From IMG/VR virus record IMGVR_UViG_3300037010_000424, positions 6,463 to 70,462 of that record: DNA of 64,000 nucleotides, one strand, 5' to 3'. The notes below the pieces were generated by a model, which ran no database searches, was not told where the DNA came from, and saw only the letters and a list, made by a program, of their open reading frames with translations. This document shows, piece after piece, positions 3,942 through 62,885 of this stretch (its first letter is position 1; each line of letters opens with the position of its first letter). Both the position numbers and the translations under genes were made by a program. Source of the DNA: a virus.

Positions 3942-3992
3942 AAAATAATACACGCGCTTATAGTCTGTAAGAACTCATCGGTAAGATAAACA

Positions 3993-4002
3993 TACATTAT
4001 CT
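3993..4002 (+). promoter_or_regulatory. Early-type phage promoter, variant TACATTATCT
   Basis: One mismatch to the recurring AAACATATATTATCT motif; intergenic. Confidence 0.55.
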
Positions 4003-4132
4003 TTGGGTAATACAAATCTCCACTTACTCTGGAGTTGTTAACTAGCGTTAAAGTTAACTGTAGATTCGTCTACATTCGCATTGTTGGTTAGTACAATAAC
4101 TATTTTTTCATTTATTATAAAAGGTTAAAGTT

Positions 4133-6204: not shown

Positions 6205-6840
6205 ATGTCAAAAACAAATGTAGCTGAATCACGAGTAACCGTTGATGTAGCGTTTCTGATTGATTTATTTGACCACCACAATGTGGACTGGAAATCGTGG
6301 AAGGTTAAAACGCTGGATAACCTTGTTGACGATTTATCAAAATCTGAAAGAACAATTACCTATACCAACGGTGAAATTGCGTTGAACTCCCGGGTGGTTT
6401 CGTGTGAAATATATTTTGGTGGTAAACAATTAATCGAAACACAATTAAAGTCGCCAACTGGAACACTTAACCGAAATATCCCATGTGGTGGAAAACTGGC
6501 GTTACGTGAAGATCCAAGAGGTGGTATGATACGAGAGCTAAAAGAGGAACTCGGATTAGACTTAGAACCTACATATCTAGGTGTGACTAAAGAAGAAAGA
6601 CACCAGTCGTATTATCCTGGTCTCCTAGGGGTTGTAACACATTACCGTTTTGCTACACCTTTACACCCAAACCAGTATAAAGAATCGTACGTCCACACTG
6701 AAGGTGATATCACATTTACGTTTAACTGGGTAGATGCAAATGATTTACTAGTCGTTCATCATACACCGCAACGTGACAGGATACTTTCTCCACAACTGAG
6801 TAATGTGAAAGCTGTGCATGTTGCAGAATGGATGGGTTAG
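6205..6840 (+). CDS. NUDIX hydrolase
   Basis: Nudix box GGKLALREDPRGGMIRELKEELGL. Confidence 0.85.
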   Translation: MSKTNVAESRVTVDVAFLIDLFDHHNVDWKSWKVKTLDNLVDDLSKSERTITYTNGEIALNSRVVSCEIYFGGKQLIETQLKSPTGTLNRNIPCGGKLALREDPRGGMIRELKEELGLDLEPTYLGVTKEERHQSYYPGLLGVVTHYRFATPLHPNQYKESYVHTEGDITFTFNWVDANDLLVVHHTPQRDRILSPQLSNVKAVHVAEWMG

Positions 6841-7114: not shown

Positions 7115-7469
7115 CTAGTGTAACTCTACCAGATTAGAATCTACGTTTAAAACATCTTTTTCAAATTCCGCATAAAATACATCAAGTGACGGCATACCAT
7201 AACACGACATACCTAGTGAAACTGGGTTAGCAACAACTGATGTTAAGTTAATACCTATTTCTCTTTGTTGATACTCTACCAAACCATCAATAGCACAGAG
7301 TACGAATACGTTTGTTCCTTTAGACACATTGCCAATTTCCCCACCTGATGGATAAGCGCCTGTTAAATCTATATCGGATGCAAATAACATAATGTTAGTT
7401 GCCATTTCTGGAAACTCTTTAATTACACACACTCCGAGTCCTTCTTCTAACTCTGCGGCTAAAGTAATG
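7115..7469 (-). CDS. Family-B DNA polymerase subunit (phiKZ gp82-like), exon 2
   Basis: Contains PolB motif-A-like DIDLTGAYPS; in frame with exon 1 after intron removal (W-I-I-T-L-A-A-E-L). Confidence 0.85.
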
Positions 7470-8232
7470 CCTTTTGTCCCATTAGCTCGTTACACTAATG
7501 CGGTGTGCTAAGACACCCGCCTACACTCTCGTGTAGGAGCAGATCATATCACCATCCTCTGAGATTAACCCAGGCGGGATGTGTACTATTTCTTCCTCAT
7601 TTTATAACTAGAGGCTCTACACCCAGTTACGGGTTGATCGTTGAACGTTCTCCATATCACATAGTGACTTAGGAGCTTCGCTGCTGATTGTCTCTACCTA
7701 ATCATTTTCAAACATTCATGTTCTAGATATAAATATCTAGTCTCACTCTTTCGAGAACATTGTAGTTGATTAGTCTAACGAGTTATTCCAGCAATTAAGT
7801 ACATTTTCATCTACCGATTCCTCGATAGGGGGACCTAAATTATCTGTTAGATAATATTTAATAAAATGAACACCACTTAAACATTCCACTGGTTGACTAA
7901 ACGCGTAATACACATTGTCAAATTCTACATTGTTCGGATTGTTATCATGGTACATGGGCTTTATATAAACCCATTGAGATATAGGTACCGATATGTTATA
8001 TTTACACACCGCAACCAAACTACCATACTCAAACTTACCAACCTCAGGTAAATCTGCGTAACATTTACCGCCCACACTTATTACAGGTAAAGAAGCATCT
8101 TTGTAATACACTTTACCGTTAAAGAATTTTAACCCATGCACATTTTCATTTTTATTAAACATAACGAACACCATATAGTTGATAAACGTACTATAGCAAT
8201 AAAATGTTCGTGTATAACATATACCTTATTTG
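7470..8232 (-). ncRNA. Group I self-splicing intron (763 nt, IA-like)
   Basis: Minus strand: 5' splice after U (GGAU|C) paired to IGS GGUCC (7831-7835); P AATTGCTGGAA, Q AATCAGCAG, R GTTCAACGATCA, S GATATGATCT; P3 TGTACT/AGTACA; terminal omega-G. Confidence 0.92.
7770..8174 (-). CDS. Intron-encoded ORF, truncated or degenerate HNH homing-endonuclease-like
   Basis: Lies in intron loop L1 and reads into the ribozyme core; HNH-like YHDNNPNNVEFDNV; only 134 aa. Confidence 0.6.
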   Translation of the reverse strand: MVFVMFNKNENVHGLKFFNGKVYYKDASLPVISVGGKCYADLPEVGKFEYGSLVAVCKYNISVPISQWVYIKPMYHDNNPNNVEFDNVYYAFSQPVECLSGVHFIKYYLTDNLGPPIEESVDENVLNCWNNSLD

Positions 8233-9599
8233 ATCCAACGTTCAGTAGTTGGGATTAATGCATCCAACTTACTAACCATGTTTTTAGCTGTACTACCTAT
8301 TACTAAACCCTCTTCCATTTCCTCGATGTGTAAATCCGTCGCTAGACGTCTAGGGTTACTTTTAAACTTATCAAAACTAGATGTGTCAACTTGCGGTCTA
8401 ATGGTTTCACACAAGTCTTTTGTTTTCTCATCTAGAAGCTCCATAAACACACCGTCACCGAATAAATATGCCATATACTCAGGTTTGTATTTACTCTGCA
8501 TAATTTGATGCCACAGACGTCCAGATATCTTACTAGAGATAGCTTTAAATTTCATCTTACCAATCTGTAAAAATTCATGTAAGATTGCATCTAAACCGTA
8601 GCCATTTCTCTGTTGTTCTCTAGCTCTAACCGTTCTAAATGTTGACATAGCGCAGATACAGTAGAAGCTAGCTGGCGCGTATACAGTGTGCCATCTTTGA
8701 GATGGAACGGTCGCCATCCGTTCACCATTAGACTTAACTTTAAATGGGGCTTCTTTATTCCATCTAAAGTGTTTGTAATTATCCGGTACAGACGGGTCAC
8801 TAAATATTAATGCTGGGTCTATATCTTCTTCTTTTAACGCCGCTAACATATGTTCAATATCACCCTCCATGTTCCAGAACGCTAAGAAGTCCGGTTGGAG
8901 TTTATGAACTGTTTTCATTAAAGCAATAACTACTTTAGTTTGGTTAGCATGTACAGTGATTCTAAGGTCGATGTTTCTATTTTTCAGTAAGTCTTTATGG
9001 TGGTACTCACACACCTCTCTTACTTTCTTCTTTATTAAGTCAGGTGGCCAATCCCACCATTTAGCACTGATTGCAATATGTACTACGTTCTTCATACTGA
9101 CTATGCCAGATATGATTGGTTCTTTAGGGTCTTCCATAGACCACTCATAATCCATTACTGCAACAGTGCTTTTACTAAACATCTTACCGTATCGTTCGGC
9201 GTAGTCAGCTTTAAGTAAATCTTCCGAAGTAATGTCTGTGCCATATACGTACGGGCTACTATTAACGTCTCTTAACTGTGGTACACGGTCAGGTCTAAAC
9301 CCATTTATCTTTTCAAATACACTTTTGGTTAAGTTACTTTGTGTACTATAAAACTTATCTAGTTTACGATCCTCTTCAAACTCACGTTTATCTTTGTGAA
9401 CACGATACTGTTTCTTAGTAATCCAATATGGACGTTTGTAGTTTTCAATCGTGCGGAGTCTTCGTTTAGGTTCAGCCCCGGGTTTATGTATAATTTCCTT
9501 AATAATCAGTGCGTCATTATTCTTGTTATATCTATCTCTTACGAATGTAGAAAAAACATATTCGCGTTTAACATCGTCTTTCTTTTCTGGAGTGCTCAT
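8233..9599 (-). CDS. Family-B DNA polymerase subunit with 3'-5' exonuclease (phiKZ gp82-like), exon 1
   Basis: Exo I MDYEW, Exo II FWNMEGD, Exo III YLFGD; spliced product is 573 aa from ATG 9599. Confidence 0.87.
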
Positions 9600-9778
9600 G
9601 TTTATAACCACGCTAACGTTTTATTTTTGTGAGAAGTTAAAGTTTACATTGAAAAGGTATTAACTACACCTTCCCACTAGTCGTATTATATCGAATAACG
9701 ATATATTAGAAATTCAGTGTAGAATGATATGTTTGAAACGAGTTATAATGTATGGTAACATACCTATGTGGAGGAGTG

Positions 9779-58412: not shown

Positions 58413-58466
58413 AATAAACCACATTAGCGATAGTGTAGGTGGTAAACTATAAAGGATAAATTGATA

Positions 58467-60248
58467 ATGTCTGTTAAAAAAATAAGTTGGTCTAAAGCAA
58501 AAGGTTATGAGTGTAGTTCACAGGGAGACTCTAGGTTCTCTGCACTCAATGCACTTATGGAAGATGGTAGAACGTTAGAACAACATTACCAATGTGATGT
58601 AAAAGGATATGATGTTGGTGGAACAAATTGGAAATTAGGTAAAGGTAAACCGCCTTTAGATACAACTCAAAAAATGTTTCCATTATATTTAAACTTGTGG
58701 AAACGATGGTGTAACATTGGTGATAACTACTCTTCTCTTTTAGAGCTTAAAGACCTAGCTGCAAATAACGATTTCTATTTACGAGATTCGTTTGCTACAT
58801 CGCCAGTCAATCAGGCACATGCGTTATCCGTTATACTTAACGATTTGGATAAAGTGTCCAAATCTAAAGTTATCGTTGAGTTATACACGGATGGTTCAGC
58901 TAGACCAAACCCTGGTTCAGCTGGGTATGGGTTTAATGGTACAGATTCACTTGGAAACGTGTATATCGGTTGGGGACCTGTAGCTAGTAGGTCCACTAAT
59001 AACGTAGCTGAGTTATTAGCTGTAGCTTACGGTATCCTCAGAATGCGAAGTGTTATACCCAACTTAGGTAAGATTAAAATATTTTCAGACAGCGAATATG
59101 TCATTGAAAATATGAAATCGGTAACAAAATGGATTGGTAACGGTTGGACTACTGACACTGGAAGACCGGTAGCTAATGTTGAGGTGTGGAAGTTTTTAGA
59201 TTCTACAATTATAGACGCTAGAAGTGCAGGAATCGATATAAGCTTACAGTGGGTCAAAGCACATAACGGCAATGTAGGTAACGAGCTAGCTGATGTAAAA
59301 GCCAACGAGGGTCGTTTAATTGCGTTAGAAACACCAATTGATTTACACTTTGAACTTACAGACCTACATAAGTTTGAAGTTACTAAATTGTTAAAGGTTA
59401 AAACTGTTTCTAAAGTGGTTACACCATTAAACAAACTGCTAGCGGCTAAACGGTGGTTCTTCTTTACAAATGTTCCAGAATTAATTGAAGGAAGACCTTT
59501 CTATTTTGCATCAGTGTACGAAGATAAGAAAGAATACAATAATCGTAATTTAGGTAAACGTGCTCCAGACAGTATGTATGTATTGCTGTTAACTGATACA
59601 CGAATAACGGTGTTAGATACGATACGTGATTCATTCAATAAAAAGTTTGCTGGAGAGACTTTACCGATTATCACATACCTTACAAAGATTCAAAGTGCTA
59701 AGGTGTGGGCAAAACTGGTTGAGTCTATAGATGAAGTTTTAGTGTATAAAGGTAACAGCGCAATTACAGTGGGTGGGGAATTACTTGGTAATTTACACTT
59801 CCCACCAAAGTTAGCTTGTAAAGTCCCCAAGATAATTACATTAGGGTACAATTGCATTAAAGAATACAAGTCTGGAAAGAGAGGTGCTCACTACTATGAT
59901 ATAACCGATAAGATTTATACAACTGATGCTAAAGGTAAACCGGCTATTAGCCCAGAGTTTACAACAAGCACTAAGTTTTTAGATATTCCAGTGGTTATAC
60001 CGTACACGTCTGATATGGGTTTGATTACACCCGAACATGCAGATATCATGCGACTGACAGTTAACATCGATCTGCCGACTAGAAACACATTCTCCGCATT
60101 ACTTAAACAAACTAAAAACCCTGTTAAAGTTACACTGATGGTTACAGAGAGTTTAGAGCGTAGTTGTAGAGTATACGTGATAGTTGAAGTGGATACTGAC
60201 ATCTGCATTTATTACAACCCCGATTCAAATTTTAGAATAAAGAAATGA
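58467..60248 (+). CDS. rnhA: RNase HI (phiKZ gp155-like) with an N-terminal NADAR/DarG1-like domain
   Basis: RNase H: LYTDGSARPNPG, TNNVAELLA, SDSEYV, WVKAHNGNVGNELAD; extra ~130-aa N-domain YECSS...FSALNA...LEQHYQCDVK...LRDSFA...NQAHAL. Confidence 0.88.
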   Translation: MSVKKISWSKAKGYECSSQGDSRFSALNALMEDGRTLEQHYQCDVKGYDVGGTNWKLGKGKPPLDTTQKMFPLYLNLWKRWCNIGDNYSSLLELKDLAANNDFYLRDSFATSPVNQAHALSVILNDLDKVSKSKVIVELYTDGSARPNPGSAGYGFNGTDSLGNVYIGWGPVASRSTNNVAELLAVAYGILRMRSVIPNLGKIKIFSDSEYVIENMKSVTKWIGNGWTTDTGRPVANVEVWKFLDSTIIDARSAGIDISLQWVKAHNGNVGNELADVKANEGRLIALETPIDLHFELTDLHKFEVTKLLKVKTVSKVVTPLNKLLAAKRWFFFTNVPELIEGRPFYFASVYEDKKEYNNRNLGKRAPDSMYVLLLTDTRITVLDTIRDSFNKKFAGETLPIITYLTKIQSAKVWAKLVESIDEVLVYKGNSAITVGGELLGNLHFPPKLACKVPKIITLGYNCIKEYKSGKRGAHYYDITDKIYTTDAKGKPAISPEFTTSTKFLDIPVVIPYTSDMGLITPEHADIMRLTVNIDLPTRNTFSALLKQTKNPVKVTLMVTESLERSCRVYVIVEVDTDICIYYNPDSNFRIKK

Positions 60249-60331
60249 AAGAACAAAACGAACGCACTAAGTACCTTTACACAATCCTAATTGTATTAGT
60301 GTTGTGTAAAGTCTGCCAATTATTATTTTAA
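60245..60331 (+). CDS. Putative 28-aa hydrophobic peptide
   Basis: MKEQNERTKYLYTILIVLVLCKVCQLLF; ATGA overlap with the RNase H stop. Confidence 0.4.
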   Translation: MKEQNERTKYLYTILIVLVLCKVCQLLF

Positions 60332-60347
60332 CTGTATAGGTTTACAG

Positions 60348-60785
60348 ATGTTTACAATGCAAGGTGATTTAATCGAACTCGCTAAAACTGGTGAATTCGA
60401 TGTAGTGTTACATGGGTGTAACTGTTATAATACAATGGATAAAGGAATTGCCGCCCAGTTTAAAGAACATTTCCCAATGGTGTATGAAGCTGATTGTAGA
60501 ACGCTAAAAGGAAACCCACAAAAGTTAGGAACATATAGCCGTGTTACACTTCCAAATGGTGTTATTGTACTTAATTGTTATACGCGATATCGTTACGGTC
60601 CAAACAGTGTAAATTACCAAGCAGTACGTGAGGTTTTACGTGGTGTTAGAGACGAGTTTGTTGGTAAAAAAGTAGGTATGTCGATGATAGGTGCTGGGTT
60701 GGCTGGAGGAGATTGGGAAAGGATTTCTAAGTACATTGACAAATATTTACCAAACTCAACTGTTGTGGAGTGGGATAATGGATGA
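60348..60785 (+). CDS. Macrodomain ADP-ribose hydrolase (DarG/Poa1/T4 Tk.4-like)
   Basis: GDLI...HGCNC...M.KGIA.QFK..FP and IGAGLAGGDW. Confidence 0.92.
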   Translation: MFTMQGDLIELAKTGEFDVVLHGCNCYNTMDKGIAAQFKEHFPMVYEADCRTLKGNPQKLGTYSRVTLPNGVIVLNCYTRYRYGPNSVNYQAVREVLRGVRDEFVGKKVGMSMIGAGLAGGDWERISKYIDKYLPNSTVVEWDNG

Positions 60786-62258: not shown

Positions 62259-62885
62259 ATGGCATTGTCAATTCTAATTGGTACTGTTGGCATATTCACT
62301 TTATCATCACCATTTACAATTGGTAAAGTAAATTATACCATAACCAAACTCAACCTTATTAAACCATTATTGGCGTCTGGCGTAGATGTATTTAATACGT
62401 ATTATGCACCAGCCAATATATCGTTGATTAAATTCAATGAAGACGTGGCAAATGGTCACGCTATAGTGACCCTAGAGTCTGATGATGGTCCAACAATCAA
62501 CGTACCCAGTGGTTACATAGCCTTGGCTCCAATCGAGCCAGCAGTGTTGTATTCTCATGTAGTTTTGTCTGTGGATTTAGGTGACCTACCAGATGAAATT
62601 AATCTAGCGCAAATGAAAGAGGACATAAAAACTATTACTGATGGTTCAGTTGGGACTGACACTATAGTCAGCTTGCATATCCTACCTGCATCAAAGGTGT
62701 ATAGCCATGAGGATTACGTTGCATCTGAAATGGAACGTAACGCTAGGGTCATAGAGTACGTTTCATTCTACACAAGTAAAGTCTCGGCTGATGACGAGTT
62801 GGCTTTGGCTAAAACCACAATAAATAAATATTCTAAAATTATCATATCTTTAAAAGAACAACTCAAAGTAGCACAATCGTCGTAA
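62259..62885 (+). CDS. Conserved jumbo-phage protein (gp161-like position)
   Basis: G.F.L..PF, VPSGYI, VLSVDLGDLPD, C-terminal coiled coil. Confidence 0.6.
   Translation: MALSILIGTVGIFTLSSPFTIGKVNYTITKLNLIKPLLASGVDVFNTYYAPANISLIKFNEDVANGHAIVTLESDDGPTINVPSGYIALAPIEPAVLYSHVVLSVDLGDLPDEINLAQMKEDIKTITDGSVGTDTIVSLHILPASKVYSHEDYVASEMERNARVIEYVSFYTSKVSADDELALAKTTINKYSKIIISLKEQLKVAQSS

Follow-up and report, generated by a model that had tools for sequence, protein, structure and literature searches.

The 64,000-nucleotide (nt) window analysed here (positions 6,463 to 70,462 of the IMG/VR virus record IMGVR_UViG_3300037010_000424) encodes a protein in which an N-terminal domain with a predicted NADAR-like fold is followed by a ribonuclease HI (RNase HI) domain and a clamp-like domain. 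The latter two parts correspond to Rhc, a DNA polymerase subunit of chimalliviruses. We propose, with a probability of about one half, that the N-terminal domain (below, the N-domain) is a very divergent, compact (~125 amino acids, aa) NADAR-class glycohydrolase tethered to the replisome, where it would erase ADP-ribose adducts from template DNA. That it acts on replicating DNA and not on soluble signals is argued most strongly by gene architecture: here the N-domain is fused to one polymerase subunit, and in the phiKZ group it abuts the gene of another.

The RNase HI part is unambiguous. Residues 137-282 match the Pfam family RNase_H with E 1.4e-25, RNase HI chains from PDB match with E down to 2.6e-15, and the carboxylate motifs (D142, E182, D208, D276) are intact. 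Three PHROG families cover the protein: phrog_9995, to which no function is assigned there (124 positions), on residues 6-126 (E 9.2e-38); phrog_531, RNase H, on residues 131-286; and phrog_3265, the chimallivirus 'ribonuclease', on residues 169-593 (E 4.3e-60). This agrees with the original prediction, made from the letters alone, of a gp155-type RNase H with an extra N-terminal domain of ~130 aa, and all the motifs quoted there are present: GYECSS at residue 13, RFSALNA at 23, LEQHYQCDVK at 37, RDSF at 106 and NQAHAL at 115. The gene has an alternative in-frame start, TTG at 58461; the ATG at 58467 better fits the AAGGA at 58452-58456, 10 nt upstream.

When the full-length protein was compared with 50,697 phage records by tblastn, 794 of them matched. 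Among the matches listed (40 of the 794 records), the alignments begin at residues 111-177 and run to the C-terminus (residues 584-593), so these phage relatives lack the N-domain. Query coverage reaches at least 80% in one record only, and there too the alignment begins at residue 111. The listed genes are annotated as 'ribonuclease H' in jumbo phages of Vibrio, Erwinia, Klebsiella, Salmonella, Xanthomonas and Pseudomonas, and the identity is 23-28%. Megablast of the locus against phage records gave no match. The neighbouring genes in the window are phiKZ-like and include a DnaB-like helicase, a major head protein and a 'polymerase' of phrog_2943 (RNA polymerase subunit). Judged by its sequence, the protein is orthologous to Rhc, a subunit of the chimallivirus DNA polymerase (gp155 type of phiKZ), and has an N-terminal addition. 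According to the available parts of two 2026 preprints (10.64898/2026.10.01.755736 and 10.64898/2026.09.30.755723), Rhc (phiKZ gp155, Goslar gp190) consists of RNase HI and a sliding-clamp-derived domain. The clamp domain binds and stimulates the split B-family polymerase DNAP-N (gp82) / DNAP-C (gp50), all in one complex, and it is the part of Rhc that localises to the phage nucleus.

The original prediction had proposed a survey of gp155 homologs for the same fusion, and this survey found it in seven further protein clusters (591-615 aa) and in two (L006 and L007) of the 80 best viral loci with the N-domain (the L numbers denote such loci). Within the fused clade the N-domain is the best conserved part, with 59-92% identity versus 46-91% in RNase H and 43-90% in the clamp. 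Both L006 and L007 lie on contigs encoding a chimallin-family protein of 647-654 aa (phrog_4795, E 7.8e-10 and 2.0e-9); the same profile matches none of the 14 control genomes. A single-sequence search with the phiKZ chimallin gave nothing in these two contigs or in the record of the window, and the two proteins were found by the PHROG profile.

In phiKZ, a frame homologous to the N-domain (79882-80235) lies directly behind the stop codon of gp82 (DNAP-N, 77960-79876), and only its last 39 codons are annotated. The gp82 homolog ends exactly at the start of the N-domain in 23 of the 80 viral loci.

The N-domain belongs to a large family. Among 339 scored candidates, 332 are stand-alone relatives of 74-237 aa with E<=0.001, and an exhaustive profile search of 1.84 billion proteins yielded 806 cluster representatives at E<=0.001, 223 of them at E<=1e-30. 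Thus the domain is real and its recurrence is more than chance. No Pfam domain was found in any of 120 stand-alone relatives among the matches listed. The N-domain makes up a gene of its own in 83 records of the phage collection (69 from Pseudomonas phages, 8 from Achromobacter phages, and others); gp084 of PhiPA3 is among these, as is a gene that N4-like Achromobacter phages carry in their early region. The six-frame translation of the window, searched by profile hidden Markov models and phmmer with the domain family, YbiA-like NADARs and T4 AdfN, contains one copy of the domain and no canonical NADAR.

Identity to the N-domain of the window across 305 aligned family segments ranges from 40 to 92%, with a median of 53%. 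Positions Y14, E15, S17, G20, D21, R23, F24, S25, G34, R35, E38, Y41, Q42, D44, K46, K59, Y74, W78, D107, F109, A110, Q116 and A117 are 94-100% conserved in these segments, and E38, K46 and D107 reach 99% each. N115 is invariant in a 35-row alignment; in the 305 segments it falls under the 85% cut-off. Since so many residues are retained at 94-100% across 305 divergent segments, the conservation pattern points to an enzyme.

The nature of this putative enzyme is suggested by structure prediction. Two AlphaFold2 models of the N-domain, one built from 35 sequences (model 1, predicted local distance difference test score, pLDDT, 86) and the other from 61 more diverse sequences (model 2, pLDDT 96, predicted TM-score, pTM, 0.89), have identical secondary structure. 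Each model was aligned to all 48,161 PDB cluster representatives. Ranks 1-3 were in both cases occupied by the NADAR chains 8bat (the DarT1-linked protein of G. lovleyi), 2b3w (E. coli YbiA) and 8bau (P. nicotianae, with ADP-ribose), and only these three representatives stood more than 3 Z units above background. The model has the alpha+beta fold of YbiA, a helical core flanked by small beta-sheets. The predicted elements also follow in the same order as in YbiA: the core helix 37-45, two long helices, the short strand 104-106 and the final helix. E38 opens the helix 37-45, K46 follows it immediately, and D107 stands immediately after the last strand, 104-106. For NADARs, the available literature gives a catalytic Glu/Lys pair on the first core helix: E88/K95 in the E. 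coli C7 NADAR and E36/K43 in T4 AdfN. In the models, E38, K46 and D107 are the likely catalytic residues.

A number of results weigh against this assignment. Firstly, none of the sequence searches links the N-domain to NADAR. The Pfam families NADAR (PF08719) and Phage_30_3 (PF08010) gave nothing at E<=1; residues 1-136 match no Pfam family even at E<=1 and no model of NCBIfam or PADLOC; the family profile compared with all PDB sequences retrieved unrelated chains only (best E 0.2); and hmmsearch between the N-domain and NADAR with all filters off gave negative scores. By hhalign the probability was 0.09% for T4 AdfN and 0.17% (E 0.34) for a profile of up to 96 YbiA-like proteins. A protein atlas search with the N-domain gave no usable match, and PF08719 had no match in the record that contains the window. 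Secondly, Foldseek, which the original prediction had proposed as a check, gave a divided answer: with model 1 it placed 8bat first (E 0.47, query TM-score, TMq, 0.51, versus ~0.17 for all other rows), with the better model 2 it listed no NADAR, and with neither model was there a PDB match at E<=0.001. Thirdly, the Glu and Lys are separated by seven residues (x7) in the N-domain versus six (x6) in YbiA, T4 AdfN and the solved NADARs, and, by our reading, a Gly/Lys-rich loop (GGTNWKLGKGKPP) replaces the two helices after the catalytic helix, which carry the phosphate-binding Arg/Trp in the NADAR of P. nicotianae. Finally, no chimallin was found in the window's own record, a 70-kb fragment estimated to be 25% complete.

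On the other hand, the validated phage NADAR T4 AdfN likewise fails PF08719 at E<=1 and has its own Pfam family; hence the NADAR models of Pfam do not span the superfamily. Moreover, the low-stringency hhalign alignment to the YbiA-like profile is collinear over 112 columns despite its 0.17% probability. It pairs FSAL with FSNF, DGRT with DGK, the segment E38...K46 with SEHYFQAQK, and D107...N115 with ND-YWG...KN. D107 is set there, instead, against the Asp of the ND-YWG motif. Taken together, the models make it highly probable that the N-domain shares a fold relationship with NADARs. Thus the fold and the plausible placement of the invariant Glu, Lys and Asp speak for the NADAR call of the original prediction, and the sequence searches do not. 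The motif pattern given there as typical of NADARs was largely the sequence of the N-domain itself, and YbiA reads FSNF, SEHYFQAQK and ENDAYWGDG at these places.

The likeness to NADARs might be confined to the arrangement of helices, the N-domain being a non-enzymatic accessory of the replisome (for DNA or protein binding, or import) or having unrelated chemistry. The silent sequence searches listed above are what one would expect in that case. However, this seems unlikely, as E15, D21, R23, R35, E38, K46, K59, D107 and Q116 show an active-site-like conservation of at least 94% in the 305 segments, the three NADARs alone stand out from the background with two independent models, and the partner domains of the family are those of the ADP-ribose network.

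These partners were surveyed in all 121 N-domain family proteins of 200-900 aa, a range beyond which lie the shorter stand-alone forms and 36 proteins longer than 900 aa. The Pfam partners are DUF4326 (33 proteins), YAcAr/SLOG (22), RNase_H (9) and DUF488-N3a (2); further SLOG-type models are DNA_processg_A (10) and cpYpsA (1), and Macro, an AlkB-like 2OG-Fe(II) oxygenase, guanylate kinase, DUF7831, RVT_3 and AAA_33 occur once each. The protein with Macro, P0149, is a fusion of a phrog_335 macrodomain with the N-domain, and P0148 combines RNase HI and the N-domain in reverse order and without the clamp. Because of its DUF4326, SLOG and Macro partners, the family occupies the slot that the surveys of Iyer, Burroughs and Aravind assign to NADAR.

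The N-domain is also embedded in giant polyvalent-style proteins of 1,000-6,146 aa (P0203, P0215, P0223, P0235-P0238, P0243-P0246, P0255-P0257, P0262, P0290, P0295, P0296 and others; loci L054, L067, L072, L079, L080, L082, L085). One protein of 889 aa, P0192, has four partial matches to the N-domain model.

As far as their available text goes, the 2021/2022 surveys (PMC7824862, PMC9503650) read such partners as processing low-molecular-weight ADP-ribose derivatives and argue the same for most phage NADAR and Macro domains. The DUF4326 and SLOG partners suit a small-molecule role equally well, and this too counts against an action on DNA. One possibility is then a NADAR-like enzyme working on soluble ADP-ribose derivatives, or on NAD-derived immune signals or toxins, with the Rhc fusion providing just co-expression or co-import. 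Such an enzyme would fit the two commonest partners and the stand-alone early-region gene of N4-like phages. However, we would give it a minor share of the probability, for three reasons. The N-domain is repeatedly joined, physically or through translation, to DNA-handling proteins, namely Rhc, RNase HI, the DNAP-N gene and the AlkB-like oxygenase; every NADAR subtype tested so far is reported to remove guanine-ADP-ribose from DNA in vitro (PMC11125620, in its available part); and immune signals are described as cytoplasmic, whereas Rhc is described as nuclear.

The replisome-tethered glycohydrolase that we favour could operate as follows. DarT enzymes are reported to ADP-ribosylate single-stranded DNA and stall replication, and the T4 NADAR AdfN to counter DarT1. 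The macrodomain protein AdfM is required against DarT2 inside the chimallivirus nucleus despite its protein shell (PMC13309987, 2026, from the part available). In the phage of the window, the clamp domain would take the fusion protein into the replication compartment and dock it on the polymerase; nuclear or replisome localisation is presumed here from the Rhc homology. The tethered NADAR-like domain would then act as an N-glycosidase. Its substrate would be ADP-ribose, most likely the guanine-linked adduct of DarT1 type, or a similar bulky base adduct, which it would remove from single-stranded template DNA at the fork or from R-loops.

The junctions between DNAP-N and the N-domain are of several kinds. 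In phiKZ (NC_004629 79870-80235; L088 3866-4245) the N-domain is in the -1 frame relative to gp82/DNAP-N and opens a few codons before its stop. The same arrangement is seen in L031, L034, L055, L057, L059, L065 and L066. A heptamer C_CCA_AAG or G_GGA_AAG abuts the DNAP-N stop (TAA or TAG) in six loci and stands one codon earlier in L065. It is kept despite differences in the encoded residues (VPK, PPK, NPK, LGK), and five of the six loci have no ATG, GTG or TTG ahead of the GYECSS motif. The pattern suggests programmed -1 frameshifting, by which DNAP-N would gain the NADAR-fold domain as an extension in phiKZ-type phages. A literature search on frameshifting at phiKZ gp82 found no related paper; one paper on Pbunavirus was judged unrelated by its abstract. 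PhiPA3 instead has TAATG at the junction.

In L068 (3986-4030), L071 (the same sequence) and L084 (3974-4010), the N-domain is in the frame of DNAP-N, with a single TAG followed by CT between them and no start codon. Genome-wide recoding of TAG to Gln is not indicated, since the long neighbouring genes of L068 and L084 have no in-frame TAG. Read-through of the single TAG, joining DNAP-N and the N-domain, is an alternative suggested by these sequences. In L029, L032, L037, L040-L042, L044 and L046 (around 3980-4020), the final ~20 nt of DNAP-N overlap the N-domain, whose frame is +1. The codon at the start position varies among GTG, TTG, CTG and ACG at seven of these eight junctions (that of L040 was not resolved). 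No canonical start precedes the motif in 11 of the 22 DNAP-N/N-domain junctions examined.

The gp82/DNAP-N homolog of the window itself (7163-9611, minus strand) is spread over at least two open frames (8226-9611 and ~7163-7465), the matched parts being separated by ~760 nt and a TAA; the PhiPA3 gene is interrupted similarly. An intron, a homing-endonuclease insertion or a frameshift might explain the interruption. No open reading frame (ORF) with a NADAR fold lies behind this homolog.

A broader proposal, which we put forward only tentatively and hold to be rather less probable than the reading of the window protein, is that the phrog_9995 domain is a mini-NADAR, a built-in DNA de-ADP-ribosylase of the chimallivirus replisome that is attached differently in each lineage. 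The modes of attachment would be N-terminal fusion to Rhc, as in the window; C-terminal extension of DNAP-N, either by -1 frameshifting at C_CCA_AAG/G_GGA_AAG (phiKZ type) or by reading through one in-frame TAG; and a translationally coupled stand-alone gene (PhiPA3, TAATG). If so, phiKZ would encode an unannotated factor of anti-DarT1 type behind gp82.

A macrodomain gene follows the fusion gene about 100 nt later on the same strand, as had been noticed from the sequence. The coordinates of these genes, of the domains and of the other features of the locus are collected in Table 1.

Table 1. Features of the fusion locus and of the adjacent inserted segment (window coordinates).
Feature	Coordinates	Strand	Evidence and remarks
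Gene of the three-part protein (NADAR-fold, RNase HI and clamp-like domains), 593 aa	58467..60248	+	Pfam, PHROGs, tblastn; stop codon at 60246-60248
N-terminal domain, aa 1-130, phrog_9995 family, predicted NADAR/YbiA-like fold	58467..58856	+	PHROGs, structure models, conservation
RNase HI domain, aa 137-282	58875..59312	+	PF00075; PDB RNase HI chains
C-terminal domain, aa 283-593, homologous to the clamp-derived domain of chimallivirus Rhc	59313..60245	+	phrog_3265, tblastn; clamp fold taken from the Rhc preprints
Perfect 10-bp inverted repeat with a 17-nt loop	60275..60311 (60275-60284 / 60302-60311)	+	In the gap between the fusion and macrodomain genes
Macrodomain gene, 145 aa, phrog_335	60348..60785	+	Pfam Macro, 25.2 bits versus a cut-off of 22; 99 nt after the stop of the fusion gene
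Small ORF, 61 aa	60778..60963	+	ATG overlaps the macrodomain stop (ATGGATGA); within the inserted segment

The product of the macrodomain gene belongs to the Pfam family Macro (PF01661). The family phrog_335 is matched both by it (E 1.4e-47) and by phiKZ gp104 (E 8.2e-43), which is AdfM, described as a nuclear anti-DarT2 enzyme in the available part of PMC13309987. It matches the NCBIfam DarG model with E 2.8e-9 and 36.7 bits, far under the full-length cut-off of 250, and the PADLOC DarG model with E 1e-9. The solved DarG macrodomains 5m3i and 5m31 match with E 7.8e-6 and 7.7e-5, just behind the BT1257-type chains 2fg1 and 2afc. N25 aligns with the catalytic Asn (N22 of DarG, N23 of AdfM) and is invariant in a five-sequence alignment including gp104. 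However, the active-site Lys is absent: R80 stands, after a conserved Thr, at the position of DarG K80 / AdfM K78 (residue identities from the legend to Figure 1 of PMC13309987, the part available), and the two nearest relatives, in L006 and L062, have Gln there. In BLASTP the protein is 35% identical to gp104 over 46 aa (E 5e-5). Close orthology to AdfM was set aside in view of this weak pairwise match and the missing Lys. In favour of the DarG-type role originally predicted are the PHROG shared with AdfM, the retained Asn and the weak but consistent matches to DarG models. From its family membership, the protein may remove a second kind of ADP-ribose linkage.

The macrodomain family is common (2,818 phage records), and a macrodomain lies within 4 kb of the N-domain in only two of the 80 viral loci. 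L006, whose N-domain is 92% identical to that of the window, has the macrodomain gene. In L007 the upstream gene, the fusion gene and the two downstream genes all have their counterparts, but the stop of the fusion gene is separated from the next start by 4 nt with no macrodomain between them, and there is no Pfam Macro match in the whole 181-kb record. Since L007 is syntenic and carries the same fusion without it, the macrodomain gene is, to judge from gene order, a recent, lineage-specific insertion and not an obligate partner of the fusion.

The original prediction had combined the two genes into a dedicated dual anti-DarTG module, with the NADAR part erasing DarT1 marks, the macrodomain erasing DarT2 marks, and both selected together; although both families are plausible ADP-ribose erasers, AdfM and the window macrodomain fall into one PHROG, P0149 joins Macro to the N-domain and L062 has both genes ~800 nt apart, such a module is improbable given the rarity of the pair, the immediate succession of the fusion gene and the next structural gene in L007, the replacement of the DarG/AdfM Lys and the short match to gp104. 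With the macrodomain recently inserted and so seldom near the N-domain, the locus is, by the same comparison of loci, an occasional pairing and not a unit.

The 99-nt gap between the two genes folds with -19.9 kcal/mol (z -2.0), and 5 of 200 shuffled sequences fold equally well. A simple terminator scan did not call the inverted repeat within it, which possibly marks the boundary of the inserted cassette or forms a hairpin at the transcript end. The 61-aa ORF has no family match in Pfam. The gap behind the macrodomain gene is ~118 nt in L006 versus 204 nt in the window, so L006 may lack this ORF. Further downstream, at 62259-62885 (plus strand), the window encodes a 208-aa protein of DUF7194 / phrog_3241 with a weak match to PCNA_C (E 0.039, below the cut-off). 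The DUF7194 / phrog_3241 gene is also conserved in L006 and L007, again on the downstream side of the fusion gene.

NADARs of phages (AdfN) and macrodomains of chimalliviruses (AdfM) have been described before. We found no paper that names the N-domain family, a NADAR-type domain on Rhc, or such a domain behind gp82; the supplements of the surveys PMC7824862 and PMC9503650 may count the family. The word NADAR is absent from the available part of the Rhc preprint 10.64898/2026.10.01.755736. If the proposed reading holds, a NADAR-fold domain wired to the polymerase would answer guanine ADP-ribosylation as AdfM answers DarT2, and would be the first example of a phage replisome with an eraser of defence marks built in. 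It would also give a name and a testable activity to a family of 806 cluster representatives, which are unannotated or called 'hypothetical protein' wherever they are named, and which span phiKZ, PhiPA3, N4-like phages and giant polyvalent proteins. The nearly unannotated phiKZ frame behind gp82 may be translated through recoding, and this possibility matters for the polymerase complex solved recently.

Among known systems, the closest to the window protein as a whole is Rhc, with which it shares RNase HI with its carboxylate motifs, the phrog_3265 C-terminal domain and phiKZ-like gene surroundings. It differs from Rhc in the additional N-terminal domain, found in none of the listed relatives (40 of 794 records), and is only ~24% identical to the proteins of Pseudomonas phages.

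The N-domain resembles NADARs (YbiA 2B3W, 8BAT, 8BAU, T4 AdfN/gp30.3) in its predicted alpha+beta fold and order of elements, and probably also in the conserved Glu and Lys, which the models place on or beside the first core helix, and the conserved acidic residue, which they place right after the last strand. Further, it is phage-encoded and keeps company with Macro, SLOG and DUF4326. Unlike NADARs, it has ~125 aa instead of 150-220, no detectable sequence similarity to them, a PHROG of its own (9995) and no Pfam model; it has the Gly/Lys-rich loop for two helices, and its E-K spacing is x7, not x6.

The presence of the N-domain in giants of 1,000-6,146 aa and its fusions to DUF4326, SLOG and Macro are analogous to the polyvalent proteins of the phage NAD/ADP-ribose network (Iyer, Burroughs and Aravind, 2021/2022). 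However, its partner in the window is a core replication protein and not another conflict domain.

The macrodomain, in turn, is similar to AdfM (phiKZ gp104) in its domain type and PHROG 335, its size, the catalytic Asn (N25 corresponding to N23) and its origin from a chimallivirus-type phage. It differs in having R80 for the catalytic Lys and in the weak pairwise match (E 5e-5, 46 aa), and its best solved relatives are BT1257-type proteins, to which no function is assigned.

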